The position numbers and the translations under genes were made by a program. Positions 55,991-62,815 of a DNA stretch of 64,000 bases are shown here, in pieces. Below the pieces are notes generated by a model. The model made no database searches and had not been told where the DNA came from. It was given only the letters and a program-made list of their open reading frames with translations. Origin of the DNA: Kiritimatiellia bacterium (GTDB taxonomy: Bacteria; Verrucomicrobiota; Kiritimatiellia; RFP12; UBA1067); NCBI GenBank assembly GCA_028686345.1, contig JAQUCE010000002.1:42735-106734 (forward strand). The letters are read 5' to 3'. The stretch's first letter is position 1, and every line of letters begins with the position of its first letter.

Positions 55991-56083
55991 AAGCCTGTAT
56001 TCATTGGGTTAAATCAACAAATACAGGCTTTAAGATGGTAGCGGGGACCGGATTTGAACCGATGACCTTCAGGTTATGAGCCT
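55991..56083. other. attL: ~93-bp direct repeat duplicating the terminator plus the 3' 48 nt of the tRNA-fMet gene. This is the left boundary of the integrated element.
   Basis: aagcctgtattcattgggttaaatcaacaaatacaggctttaagatggtagcggggaccggatttgaaccgatgaccttcaggttatgagcct matches 62694-62786 with 3 mismatches. Confidence 0.8.
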
Positions 56084-56236
56084 AACACCATACCACAGCC
56101 GCACCCCTATAAACAAAGGCTTTCGTTTTCTTGAAATATCCATTTGTGCGTTTATTTGTGTTTTGTGTTTGTGTTTTATTCCAGTTCATGCCATAGTGTA
56201 ACCATGTGTTAAACCAATAACGAAAGCGGGTTAATT

Positions 56237-57823
56237 ATGGCACTTGAAATCAGGAAAAACACCAAAGGCGACATTATAGGGCACTGGTACGGAGCTTATA
56301 CCGATGCCAACGGGAAGCGGCGAATTGTGCCACTGTCAGAACAGATACCACCGAACAGTTACCCCGGCGCAGTGAAGCAGACCGGAAGCCCATTGTTTGA
56401 AGCAAGCAGGGCACGGGCTGAAAAGGAGCTGGAAGAGATCAGAACCGAAGCAGCGCAGCGGGGACGGGTTGACCACTTGACCGAGCGGTTAATTCAGAGT
56501 AAGACAGGGCGCAAGGTTGACTATGTGAAGCTGGCAGACTTGCCGGCCAAATGGCGCAAGGTAGGACGCAGCCGAAAACCGTCTAAAGAGTGGATGCAGA
56601 ACTGTGACGGCATTTTCAGCAAGTTTGCAGAATCGGTACCATGTCAATTCTTGTATGAGGTGACCAGCGACCAGGCCGCCGTCTATCTGGAGACACTAAA
56701 GCAGCGGGTGACCCTGAAAACAGCCAACGGCACACTTCAACTATTGAAGGCCGCCTTCACTCGCTTTCTACCAACGGGAGCGGTAAACCCGTTTAATGAT
56801 CTAATCGGAGGGAGCGACCCCGACACCGTCCACCGCCGTCCCTTCACAGCTCCGGAACTTACACGGCTATTTGAAGCCGCTAGCAGTGACAGCTTTATGC
56901 ACCCCTTGATAGTTTGCGCAGCTTGCAGCGGACTCAGGCGCGGGGACGTATGCCGCCTAACATGGGATAGCGTCAACTTAACCGAAGGCGTGTTATCCAT
57001 TAAGCGAACCTCTAAGACGGGCGCGGGGGTTGAGATACCAATATTCAAGCCGTTGCGGGAAGTCCTAGAAGCCGCCTTATCAGAAAAGGACGAAGGGCAA
57101 AGGTATGTTTTCCCAGAAGCGGTTAAAATGCTGAAAGCGAACCCGGACGGATTGACATGGAGGTTTAAGAAGATAGCAGCCGCCGTAGTTTGTCCAGAAG
57201 GCGACCCAGACAGCCCACAGGCCGCAACCCTTGCCGATGTATTGCCGGAAGTCTTGAAGGCCGTAGCGGGGACGCTGGACGGCAAGCGGCGCGACAGGGT
57301 GACGGATTGCCTTGAACGGTACGCAGACGGGCAAAGCATACGCGACATTGAAAAGGAGACCGGGCGTTATCGCTCCCAGGTATCAAGCGACTTGCACCAA
57401 GCAGAAGAGATCAGCGGGTTTTTGTTTATGCCGTTGCCTGCTGGAGGGGAAAGCAGCAAGGCACTAATCAATAGAGCGACACGCGGCACAAAAAAGGGAC
57501 GGGCGCGGCGGTCTTCAACCGTTGATTGGCACTCGCTCAGGACTACATGGGTAACGCTGGCACTGTCAGCCGGGGTACCGATGGAGATATGCCGACGGGT
57601 GACAGGCCATAAAACGGTTGAGACTGTACTAACTCACTATTTCAGGCCAGGGCGCGACCACCTGAAGGCGGTATTAGGGGAAAAGCTACCGGACGTTTTA
57701 ACGGGCAATAATAACACCCTACCAGCAGCCGGGCCGGACGTTTCAGCACTTGCGGCGCAACTGGCAAATTTGACAAGTTTTGAACGGGAGAAAATAAAAG
57801 AGATATTAAATAATCAGCCTTAA
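56237..57823 (+). CDS. int: Tyrosine-type site-specific integrase (large, 528 aa)
   Basis: Catalytic R (LRRGDVCRLTWDS), HxxR (WHSLRTTWVT), H...Y (GHKTVETVLTHYF). Located next to the tRNA att site. Confidence 0.85.
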   Translation: MALEIRKNTKGDIIGHWYGAYTDANGKRRIVPLSEQIPPNSYPGAVKQTGSPLFEASRARAEKELEEIRTEAAQRGRVDHLTERLIQSKTGRKVDYVKLADLPAKWRKVGRSRKPSKEWMQNCDGIFSKFAESVPCQFLYEVTSDQAAVYLETLKQRVTLKTANGTLQLLKAAFTRFLPTGAVNPFNDLIGGSDPDTVHRRPFTAPELTRLFEAASSDSFMHPLIVCAACSGLRRGDVCRLTWDSVNLTEGVLSIKRTSKTGAGVEIPIFKPLREVLEAALSEKDEGQRYVFPEAVKMLKANPDGLTWRFKKIAAAVVCPEGDPDSPQAATLADVLPEVLKAVAGTLDGKRRDRVTDCLERYADGQSIRDIEKETGRYRSQVSSDLHQAEEISGFLFMPLPAGGESSKALINRATRGTKKGRARRSSTVDWHSLRTTWVTLALSAGVPMEICRRVTGHKTVETVLTHYFRPGRDHLKAVLGEKLPDVLTGNNNTLPAAGPDVSALAAQLANLTSFEREKIKEILNNQP

Positions 57824-58004
57824 ACCGCCTTAAGTTTTAATGCCGTTTCATCACGTAACCCTTGCATTTGCAGGGGTTTGTTTGTTTCTAGCAATAATCG
57901 GTTTGTGATCGTGTGACCCCTTCATGCCGTAGAAAGCCGCCTAAATAGCGTTCACCATTTTTACACGTTGGCTATAGGTGAACGTGTAACGGTAATGAAG
58001 CCGC

Positions 58005-58304
58005 TTGCATGAAACGAAAGGCGACCATATGACCACAGAGAACCGAATACAGGCGATACTAATAGCCGACCCCGTCAAGCTGGCACAGATTGACAGCATA
58101 CTGACAGGTACGCACACAGAAGCAGCACCAAGCGACCGCCGTTTGTTGACCAAGACGGAAGCCGCTAAAACGCTAGGCATGTCACGTCAAACGATTTGGC
58201 GCATGATTAAAGAGGGACGCTTGCCCGTGATCGAGATCCGGCGCGGACAGCACCGCATACCAAGCGCGGCACTAACTTCAATGCTTCAGGAGGTGAACCA
58301 GTGA
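58005..58304 (+). CDS. Excisionase / AlpA-like HTH DNA-binding protein
   Basis: LLTKTEAAKTLGMSRQTIWRMIKEGRLPVIEIRRGQHRI matches the Xis/AlpA (HTH_17) family pattern. It follows the integrase. Confidence 0.6.
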   Translation: MHETKGDHMTTENRIQAILIADPVKLAQIDSILTGTHTEAAPSDRRLLTKTEAAKTLGMSRQTIWRMIKEGRLPVIEIRRGQHRIPSAALTSMLQEVNQ

Positions 58305-58464
58305 AGATCGTTATTCCTCAAATTCTTTGCAAATATCGACACTTGAAAACAGCCGCTTGCCATAATCTAAAACGCTGTAGCGGTTGCAGCCGCGTTTTAC
58401 GGGAGCATGAAAAGGGCTGGACTTGCTCAGCCTGTCGCAACTCTCAGAGAGGGGCCGCGAAATG
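58301..58464 (+). CDS. Possible 54-aa Cys-rich (Zn-ribbon-like) protein translationally coupled to both neighbours
   Basis: The GTG start overlaps the xis stop (GTGA). Its TGA stop overlaps the primase ATG (ATGA). Translation gives VKIVIPQILCKYRHLKTAACHNLKRCSGCSRVLREHEKGWTCSACRNSQRGAAK, with cysteines arranged C..CxxC...CxxC. Confidence 0.3.
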
Positions 58465-61633: not shown

Positions 61634-62149
61634 TTGCGGGCCATATGTATGAGACTAACTAATAAACAAGCGCGGTTTTGTAGCGAGTATATGACCGACT
61701 TCAACGCGACCCAGGCGGCAATTAGAGCGGGATACTCACAGAAGACCGCAGCGCAGGCGGGATGTTCTTTATTAACTAATCCTAATATCAAAGAAAAAAT
61801 CACACTTACAACTAATGAAATGGCAGGAGATAACCTTGCCACAGTGAACCGAATCATTAGCGAGCTATGCGGCATTGCATTCACCCGCGTGACCGATGTA
61901 GTATCAGTTAGCGCGGGCGGGGTTGCAAGCGTAAACCCCATAGACGAATTGACCGACTCACAGCAGCGGGCTATTGAGTCAATAAGTCAAACTCAGTTCG
62001 GTGTTAAAATCAAGATGCACGACAAAGTTAGGGCCATAGAGCTATTAGGGCGGCATTTAGGTATGTGGGTTGAAAAAATAGAGATCGATACAAAAAGCCC
62101 CTTTGATGACTTTACAGATGAGGAACTAGATCAAATAATTAACGGCTGA
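61634..62149 (+). CDS. terS: Phage terminase small subunit (Terminase_2-like)
   Basis: N-terminal LTNKQARFCSEYMTDFNATQAAIRAGYSQKTAAQAGCSLLTNPNIKEKI is the characteristic TerS HTH region. Confidence 0.7.
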   Translation: MRAICMRLTNKQARFCSEYMTDFNATQAAIRAGYSQKTAAQAGCSLLTNPNIKEKITLTTNEMAGDNLATVNRIISELCGIAFTRVTDVVSVSAGGVASVNPIDELTDSQQRAIESISQTQFGVKIKMHDKVRAIELLGRHLGMWVEKIEIDTKSPFDDFTDEELDQIING

Positions 62150-62394
62150 AAGATCAAAGCATCACTTTGTAAGTAAATCTCAAACACCACAGCAAAGCGG
62201 CGTTATCTCATTGCAGGGATAGGGCCGCCTTTTTGCTTTAAAGCGTGACACTCTAACAGGCCATTTTTAAGCGATTTAAGGCCATAGCAGTTTAAAGCAT
62301 ACGAACACCCGCGCCGGAACCAGCAGCGCGACCAGCGCAGCGACTCGCATTAGAATAAATCAAAGATCAGAACTCGCAGCAAAGCGGCGATATT

Positions 62395-62625
62395 AAGCAA
62401 CTACATTTGTGTGATATTTGTGTGATTTGTGTGATTTGTGTTTGTGTGATTTGTGTTTGTGTGATTTGTGTGATTTATGTGATTTGTGTGATATTTGTGT
62501 GATTTGTGTAATGGCCATAAACCTGAAATATTCAGGTGACAGCCGTTTCAACCTTGTAAGACGGGGGTTTATGCGTTTATTTGTGTGATTTGTGTTTGTG
62601 TGATTTGTGCGTATATTTGTGTGAT
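62395..62625. repeat. Tandem array of TTTGTGTGA-type 9-bp units (two blocks, 62395-62515 and 62570-62630) just inside attR. A short related block sits at the other end of the element (56143-56180). Both ends share TGCGTTTATTTGTGT.
   Basis: Read directly. Candidate integrase arm-type sites or replication-origin iterons. Confidence 0.7.
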
Positions 62626-62693
62626 TGACCCCCGTAAACCCCTATATTCCACACTGTAACATGAAAACAGGGGATTAAACGCAGAAATAGAAA

Positions 62694-62738
62694 AAGCCCG
62701 TATTCATTGAGTCAAATCAACAAATACAGGCTTTAAGA
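62694..62738 (-). terminator. Rho-independent terminator downstream of tRNA-fMet (hairpin GCCCGTATT...AATACAGGC followed by a T-run on the tRNA strand). It is duplicated in attL, where the stem is perfect.
   Basis: Stem-loop and U-tract read directly from the minus strand. Confidence 0.6.
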
Positions 62739-62815
62739 TGGTAGCGGGGACCGGATTTGAACCGATGACCTTCAGGTTATGAGCCTGACGAGCTACCAAG
62801 CTGCTCCACCCCGCA
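62739..62815 (-). tRNA. tRNA-Met, initiator type (anticodon CAT), with encoded CCA. Its 3' half is the integration target of the element.
   Basis: The minus-strand sequence tGCGGGGTGGAGCAGCTTGGTAGCTCGTCAGGCTCATAACCTGAAGGTCATCGGTTCAAATCCGGTCCCCGCTACCA is near-identical to E. coli tRNA-fMet. It has the unpaired 1:72 position characteristic of initiators. Confidence 0.85.

Follow-up and report, generated by a model that had tools for sequence, protein, structure and literature searches.

What kind of mobile element is the six-gene island that sits in a tRNA gene of a Kiritimatiellia bacterium? The island lies within the 64,000-nt stretch of contig JAQUCE010000002.1 (assembly GCA_028686345.1, positions 42,735 to 106,734) that we analysed, hereafter the window, and its genes include an integrase, an excisionase, a primase-helicase and a small terminase subunit (TerS). 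Most documented phage satellites come from Proteobacteria and Firmicutes, with further marine cases in Cyanobacteria, SAR11 and Verrucomicrobia. To our knowledge, no phage or satellite biology has been described for the phylum Kiritimatiellota, and none of the papers found in a literature search on prophages and phage satellites in this phylum mentions it. We conclude that the island is probably a 6.7-kb integrative, self-replicating phage satellite of the same kind as phage-inducible chromosomal islands (PICIs), a reading to which we assign a probability of roughly 0.6. Dependence on a helper phage and packaging, both read from gene content only, appear about as probable as the reading as a whole. 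A first-pass annotation of the same DNA had already called the island PICI- or satellite-like, and every element of that call that is accessible to sequence analysis (att repeats, gene set, missing structural genes) has held.

Insertion site and gene content

The island enclosed by the att repeats measures 6.7 kb. The repeats are direct, 96 nt long each and located at 55988-56083 (attL) and 62691-62786 (attR); a pairwise alignment gives 93/96 identical positions, while the initial repeat search had paired 55988-56095 with 62691-62798 at 93% identity. The target is a tRNA-Met(CAT) gene of initiator type on the minus strand (62739-62815; ARAGORN and Rfam), which the element reconstitutes. Because the coordinates of repeat and tRNA gene overlap, the repeat can be seen to take in 48 nt at the 3' end of the tRNA (62739-62786) and roughly 48 nt downstream of it, where both copies contain a hairpin of 17-18 bp followed by a T-run. 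At attL, the chromosomal terminator hairpin (55990-56031) is joined to a duplicate of the 3' 48 nt of tRNA-fMet (56036-56083), a composition that was proposed at first pass and on which alignment and hairpin scan agree. At attR, an element-derived terminator hairpin (62693-62734) adjoins the corresponding 48 nt at the 3' end of the functional tRNA-fMet gene. An exact block of 72 nt (56012-56083, equal to 62715-62786) lies inside the repeats, and the remaining 24 nt upstream contain the three mismatches, all of them in the hairpin part. No third copy of the tRNA 48-mer occurs in the window. The repeats and their target thus stand as first annotated, with the sizes then given (about 93 bp for the repeats, 6.6 kb for the island) now corrected.

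The ARAGORN call is Met(CAT) only, and we read the initiator assignment from the sequence, which has an unpaired 1:72 position (U·U), an A11:U24 pair, and the pairs G30-C40 and G31-C39 beside the CAU anticodon loop. A 1:72 mismatch, A11:U24 and G30-C40/G31-C39 are established features of initiator tRNAs. The target is also about 90% identical to what we take to be the sequence of Escherichia coli tRNA-fMet. Past the left repeat, a degenerate 5' half of a tRNA continues (pseudo-tRNA at 56039-56108, 33 bits in Rfam); the left repeat runs into it, and the attP of the element is therefore tRNA-like. Taken together, these sequence features show that site-specific recombination placed the island in the 3' half of an initiator-type tRNA-Met gene, where the island's own copy replaced the displaced 48 nt and their terminator.

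All six island genes lie on the plus strand, and their proteins were scanned against Pfam, PHROGs, NCBIfam and PADLOC. The first gene (56237-57823) encodes a tyrosine integrase of 528 aa (Phage_integrase E 2e-13; phrog_1 E 6e-33), as first annotated, whose R, HSLR, GH and THY residues align with the XerC-like catalytic motifs (R / HxxR / H / Y). In this integrase, about 113 additional aa (residues ~312-424) separate the Lys beta-hairpin region from the HxxR box of the catalytic domain, and residues 349-377 of this insertion match HTH_58 weakly. Integrases from a Kiritimatiellia contig (L015:4622-6292) and a Lentisphaeraceae contig (L016:2552-4261) align with the island integrase over their full length at 38-40% identity, so that the insertion looks like a conserved feature of a lineage and not like an artefact; both contigs share the long integrase and the excisionase with the island. 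A terminator-like hairpin was found 3' of the integrase gene by consensus scan only (57857-57878, plus strand).

The second gene (58029-58304) encodes a winged helix-turn-helix (HTH) protein of 91 aa of the excisionase family, an Xis or AlpA-like regulator, which matches HTH_17 (E 5e-11), phrog_66 and TIGR01764 (E 3e-9); its start is probably the ATG at 58029. The earlier designation as an AlpA-like excisionase is borne out as regards the excisionase family, whereas the Pfam Phage_AlpA match is sub-threshold (16.6 bits, with the cut-off at 21), as is that to MerR. Four nucleotides of overlap then link a micro-ORF of 54 aa (58301-58465) to the primase gene, with the TGA of the micro-ORF overlapping the primase ATG at 58462 (ATGA). 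The micro-ORF has no match in any of the four databases. It is nevertheless supported as a real gene by homologues of 43-55 aa with a CxxC...CxxC pattern that precede the primase in two other elements (L010:426-593 and L011:828-959, aligned with window 58301-58465): C26, C29, C42 and C45 are invariant in the three elements, and the gene always abuts the primase start. The translational coupling of a zinc-ribbon micro-ORF to the primase by an ATGA overlap, which had been suggested before, is upheld, and the micro-ORF may encode a zinc-binding domain that has become detached from the primase.

The primase-helicase itself (58462-60993; 843 aa) is of the P4 alpha type, with Toprim, D5_N (E 5e-33) and DUF5906 (SF3-helicase) domains and a match to the P4 family TIGR01613 (E 5e-64). 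The domains are those named at first pass, with the start moved from TTG 58423 to ATG 58462. This protein equals MDD2597770.1; exact-protein look-ups with TTG-start versions of primase and TerS gave no match, and the annotated starts of both are ATG. Proteins identical to those of the island occur in Kiritimatiellia metagenome-assembled genomes (MAGs), as MDD2597761-772 on a 139.7-kb contig and in GCA_043956585.1.

The fifth gene, orf148 (61132-61578), encodes a predicted all-helical protein of 148 aa with no family match. Searched exhaustively with HMMER against 1.84 billion representatives, it had its own variant (P0255) as sole relative besides one weak match (E 6e-05, over 38 residues of a 4,294-aa protein), and a low-confidence AlphaFold2 model consists of three long helices with a predicted local distance difference test score (pLDDT) of 67. 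The gene upstream of terS in the phage contig L002, described below, was considered as a homologue and dropped, as the comparison showed no homology. Placing this ORF in the slot of capsid-redirection or helper-interference genes, as the first-pass annotation did for its coiled-coil ORF, is therefore unsupported, and orf148 is best described as an ORFan.

The small terminase and its phage relatives

The last gene of the island (61649-62149) encodes an orphan small terminase of the SF6/SPP1 G1P type with 166 aa (Terminase_2 E 3.6e-38; phrog_51 E 3e-42), which also matches PDB 3zqp, the G1P of phage SF6 (E 9e-13). The identification as TerS had been made for a longer ORF of 171 aa from 61634 and is confirmed by these matches, with the start now placed at ATG 61649; the Terminase_2 domain is intact at residues 8-153 of the 171-aa ORF. 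On its 3' side no ORF follows, only 540 nt of non-coding DNA and then attR.

The nearest relatives of this TerS (P0002-P0008) share 54-58% identity with it and stem from short metagenome contigs. Among the homologues with genomic context, P0004 (57% identity, contig L002) is the closest. An overlapping 486-aa protein resembling a large terminase subunit (TerL; weak Terminase_6N match) follows it, then a 504-aa portal-like protein (DUF4055) and, further downstream, a scaffold-like protein with coiled coil and a major capsid protein of Gp13-like type. P0010 and P0012 (46-49% identity to the island TerS) are likewise followed by TerL, portal and head genes in phage contigs. An ORF of at least 350 aa stands directly after TerS in 83 of 108 loci with TerS relatives from IMG/VR and JGI metagenomes, and most of the remaining loci end at contig edges. 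With relatives located directly upstream of TerL, and no ORF following it in the island, this TerS is a phage-type protein without a partner TerL.

Seven TerS homologues (L155, L177, L182, L183, L188, L194 and L198) have several kb of downstream sequence with no large ORF directly after; that of L194 sits in a 2.8-Mb contig. None of these loci has a primase related to that of the island, and they might represent additional satellites with an orphan TerS, in other taxa.

The genes that a phage would need beyond TerS were sought in several ways. Pfam and PHROG scans found no tail, holin, portal, connector/adaptor or capsid family among the six island ORFs, tblastn with TerL, portal and major capsid protein of three TerS-related phages found none in the window, and no TerL, structural or lysis gene is present in the island or in the 10 kb past the window on the source contig. 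The early statement that capsid, tail, portal, large terminase and lysis genes are missing holds on all these counts. The right flank, in those 10 kb, encodes a DUF4340 protein, ABC-transporter components, phosphoglucomutase (PGM) and FeoB, and the left flank a pectate-lyase-like protein, a sigma-54 activator, DinB and others. The island might have been the end of an ordinary small prophage continuing outside the window, and this is refuted by flanks that consist of housekeeping genes and contain no structural or TerL genes.

A satellite of the PICI kind with this gene set could act as follows. Once a helper phage infects the cell or is induced, the excisionase-family HTH protein would drive excision together with the integrase, and the primase-helicase would replicate the excised circle. 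The island TerS would then bind a pac site on the island and recruit the TerL of the helper, so that island DNA could be packaged by the headful into capsids made by the helper. As no capsid-size gene is recognisable, the simplest expectation would be multimers that fill full-size heads, as in PICMIs (phage-inducible chromosomal minimalist islands).

Sibling elements and the backbone family

A sibling element provides evidence that this kind of island moves. The 5,863-nt metagenome contig L170 (ENA ERZ27250894) encodes an integrase 91% identical to that of the island and matches the window twice at about 89% identity: its positions 381-737 correspond to 62456-62810 (right arm and att), and positions 615-2395 to 55986-57766 (att and int). 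Both matches have a single att core in common, which is located upstream of the integrase gene, and a three-way alignment resolves attP into the attR side that belongs to the island, the core and the attL side that belongs to the island. This junction is an attP, which could stem from an excised circle, from a concatemer or from a tandem insertion; on a contig the three would look alike. L170 overlaps contig L010 of a Kiritimatiellia MAG with 99.9% identity over 2,775 nt, and the two (L170 1-5863, L010 1-4607) combine into an element of at least 7.7 kb with the same att/int module. A closer variant, L200 (run SRR9030907), is 95% identical at the nucleotide level and has orf148 and terS beside the same att.

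The three terminator differences (55990-56031 against 62693-62734) allow the chromosomal copy to be told from the element-derived copy. The sibling attP (L170:618-660) has the "chromosomal" variant at 3/3 of these positions, which suggests variable crossover points or an exchange between element and host copies.

This junction bears directly on the possibility that the island is a decayed prophage remnant that has retained only int, xis, primase and terS. All four gene types are also present in temperate phages, which counts in favour of such an origin. The att sites are intact and 6.7 kb apart, though, no pseudogenes or TerL fragments lie between terS and attR, the flanks are housekeeping genes, and the sibling attP shows that a unit of this size is itself the mobile entity. 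A decayed prophage is thus very improbable, and we reject it on the intact att sites, the absent TerL remnants and the sibling junction.

The attP contig would equally fit a free circular replicon, and together with the P4-family primase it is the evidence for an integrated P4-like plasmid or phasmid, which would persist and spread chiefly in autonomous plasmid form or through inheritance with the chromosome and carry its TerS as non-functional baggage. Partition, toxin-antitoxin and mobilisation genes were, however, absent from the island in Pfam, PHROG and NCBIfam scans, the element is integrated with intact att sites, and every ORF is intact. We regard this alternative as improbable.

Both ends of the island carry repeated motifs. 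The P arm (62406-62625, plus strand) contains 13 same-strand copies of TTTGTGTGAT, candidate arm-type sites of the integrase, spaced by 9-15 nt in two clusters, ten at 62406-62512 and three at 62580-62625. The window holds 17 matches to TTTGTGTGAT where 3.75 are expected. Across att, the P' arm (56084-56236) comprises the degenerate tRNA 5' half and degenerate copies of the same type (TTTGTGYK, 56143-56180), and it is kept in the attP of L170. The attP arms of this sibling retain the motif in nine exact copies, and it was not found in the L002-type phage contigs. The sibling shares an integrase that is 91% identical and a primase that is only 55% identical, so that the motif tracks the integrase, which favours arm-type sites. 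Arrays flanking att are thus most likely integrase arm-type sites, with origin iterons or a pac site for TerS as possible alternatives.

Sibling and island differ in the remaining genes. The excisionases of L010/L170 and of the island are 74% identical, and in the sibling a 191-aa gene lies between int and xis, genes of 199 aa and 254 aa (coiled-coil) follow the primase, and the last gene is unrelated; its cargo proteins have no NCBIfam match. Related primases with 30-52% identity occur in 80 genome loci, in Kiritimatiellia, Victivallales/Lentisphaeria, Planctomycetota, Acidobacteriota, Chloroflexota, Bacillota and others. The island therefore appears, from these comparisons, to be composed of an int-xis-(Zn-ribbon)-primase backbone with swappable cargo, which is here orf148 and terS.

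Several observations weigh against a satellite of the PICI kind. A Terminase_2 gene lies within 10 kb in 0 of the 80 related primase loci, in a search whose positive control on the window worked, and the sibling L170/L010 carries different cargo; TerS is thus not conserved along with the backbone and could have been picked up incidentally as cargo. No pac site was pinpointed on the island, and no helper phage, packaged DNA or induction record exists for it. Neither the element nor a close relative of its primase or TerS was found in IMG/VR viral contigs (best 35-45% identity), the element-specific pseudo-tRNA junction was not found in IMG/VR, and a scan of JGI metagenomes for TerS relatives reached 42% identity at best. 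Compared with the nearest phage group, the TerS is 70% identical at residues 6-35, 38% at 36-70, 76% at 101-150 and only 24% in the C-terminal tail (151-171), a mixed pattern when set against the idea of a divergent N-terminal DNA-binding part and a conserved C-terminal TerL-binding part. In SF6/SPP1-type small terminases, the C-terminal tail contacts TerL. If this applies here, a tail with 24% identity means that the nearest phage group is not established as the helper.

These observations give rise to the main rival, in which the island is a cargo-carrying integrative element with tycheposon- or PICMI-like features and terS is an accessory or defensive gene, either an anti-phage decoy that poisons the terminase of an invader or a recent capture. 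Its own packaging would then not be the role of TerS, and any transfer would occur by generalised packaging or another route. Besides the 80 TerS-free primase loci and the different sibling cargo at the same position, this idea draws on base composition: GC is 0.54 in int, 0.49 in the primase operon, 0.44 in orf148-terS and 0.41 in the terminal non-coding DNA, and the lower value of orf148-terS suggests a separate, more recent acquisition. As a whole, the island is more AT-rich than its surroundings, as had been noted (GC 0.482, against 0.563 in the chromosome to its left). PICMIs, moreover, transfer without any terS (PMC10803314). On the other hand, the TerS has its full length, its Terminase_2 domain is intact, and the protein is 98% identical at the amino-acid level in the L200 variant, whose nucleotide identity is 95%. 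PADLOC matched no island protein to a defence system; the similarities it gave, to HTH and Toprim, were generic ones. Published studies of PICIs and of PICI-like tycheposons take satellite-borne terS to redirect helper packaging to satellite DNA (PMC10085698; bioRxiv 10.1101/2020.12.28.424599). On balance, we consider an accessory or defensive terS rather unlikely and favour a satellite of the PICI kind.

A conserved terS-bearing family, in turn, can be ruled out, given the 80 related primase loci without Terminase_2. With backbone relatives that lack terS, the island is better termed a terS-carrying member of a cargo-variable int-xis-pri family. A more far-reaching and rather unlikely reading is that the island represents a lineage of tRNA-integrating, cargo-exchanging int-xis-Zn-ribbon-primase elements in the Planctomycetes-Verrucomicrobia-Chlamydiae (PVC) superphylum, with hosts in Kiritimatiellia and Lentisphaeria/Victivallales. 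Members of this lineage might independently have become satellites by capturing a helper-type terS together with the lineage-specific ORFan orf148, which could be a new helper-interference or packaging-specificity factor, and the 13-copy TTTGTGTGAT array might serve as a combined arm-site and pac region.

Place among known satellites

The SatelliteFinder definition of a PICI lists an integrase, an alpA/merR/stl regulator, a primase-replicase, a capsid-morphogenesis gene and terS, it forbids tail, holin, portal and connector genes, and it designates elements with 4/5 core components as "Type B" (PMC10085698). Judged by gene content and not by a SatelliteFinder run, the island has 4/5 core components and none of the forbidden ones (PMC10085698): an integrase with the Phage_integrase and phrog_1 matches and catalytic motifs, an alpA/merR/stl-type regulator through HTH_17 and TIGR01764 (MerR and Phage_AlpA being sub-threshold), a primase-replicase (Toprim, D5_N, DUF5906, TIGR01613) and a small terminase (Terminase_2, phrog_51, PDB 3zqp). 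The profile PF12728 (HTH_17) is itself among the AlpA profiles of the PICMI model of SatelliteFinder (PMC10803314). A capsid-morphogenesis gene was not found in the scans of the six island proteins, among which orf148 is an ORFan. In the biological sense, a PICI is induced, excised, replicated and packaged at high frequency in dependence on a helper phage, and for this the attP-type junction of the sibling gives the sole support, of an indirect kind. The likeness to PICIs extends to the small size, the integrated state and the flanking direct repeats. Co-oriented genes with int in first place are the layout of Gram-negative PICIs, and the island is arranged in this way. It differs from PICIs in its host phylum, Kiritimatiellota, in its length, since 6.7 kb is small for a PICI, in its regulator, which is a generic excisionase-family HTH protein with no Stl or cI repressor in the island, in having no known helper, and in having backbone relatives without terS. 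More than 99.9% of detected PICIs are from Proteobacteria or Firmicutes (PMC10085698).

The PICI-like tycheposons, known from Prochlorococcus and other marine bacteria, come close in architecture. They have a core of tyrosine recombinase, xis and primase with terS at tRNA genes, a swappable cargo module, a subtype that carries terS or the major capsid protein gene as sole packaging gene, and targets that include a tRNA-Met(CAT) (bioRxiv 10.1101/2020.12.28.424599). The island corresponds to this PICI-like architecture in its tRNA-targeted recombinase, partial tRNA repeats, excisionase, replication module with primase/helicase, variable cargo and terS as the sole packaging gene; the likeness is one of architecture. 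It differs in host lineage and in the internal insertion of about 113 aa in its integrase.

PICMIs are minimalist satellites of Vibrionaceae with an int/alpA/prim core that integrate beside fis and have no terS (PMC10803314). Their size of about 6 kb, an integrase, an AlpA-type regulator, a DUF5906 primase, a small ORF with ATGA overlap and the absence of capsid-remodelling genes recall the island, which is not a PICMI, as it lies in tRNA-fMet and carries terS. Satellite P4 shares a P4-family primase-helicase, an integrase and integration into a tRNA gene with the island, for which plasmid-like replication is possible; the island has an alpha-like primase, int and an alpA-like HTH gene only, without a psu-delta-sid operon, epsilon or a recognisable cos site, and it encodes a pac-type TerS, which P4 does not.

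The marine virion-encapsidated integrative mobile elements (VEIMEs) have been found integrated in genomes of Verrucomicrobia, and among VEIMEs there are some whose TerS homologs are closest to those of co-occurring phages (PMC9618062). VEIMEs were defined by their physical presence in virions (PMC9618062), whereas the island is described here from sequence. The first-pass annotation had called a satellite in a PVC-like genome notable; this holds for the Kiritimatiellia host and was otherwise overstated, given the published Verrucomicrobia VEIMEs (PMC9618062) and terS-bearing tycheposons (bioRxiv 10.1101/2020.12.28.424599). What is new is thus limited to the host lineage (Kiritimatiellia), the ORFan orf148 and the unusual integrase, while the kind of element is already known. 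The island leaves the satellite concept itself unchanged. Its terS, intact att sites, sibling attP and phage relatives of TerS offer a concrete handle for finding phages of Kiritimatiellia, and it lends itself to the question of whether capture of a terS by a generic int-xis-primase backbone repeatedly gives rise to satellites.

Elsewhere in the window, a tRNA-Arg(ACG) gene (62833-62909, minus strand; ARAGORN and Rfam) lies next to the target tRNA gene. About 6-9 kb to the left of the island, genes for a Peptidase_S24 protein (LexA/UmuD-like) and a DinB (IMS) polymerase occupy 47268-49956 (L171:1068-3720). Two very large ORFs, of 2,964 aa (27143-36037, plus strand) and 1,584 aa (19977-24731, minus strand), are located still further from the island.

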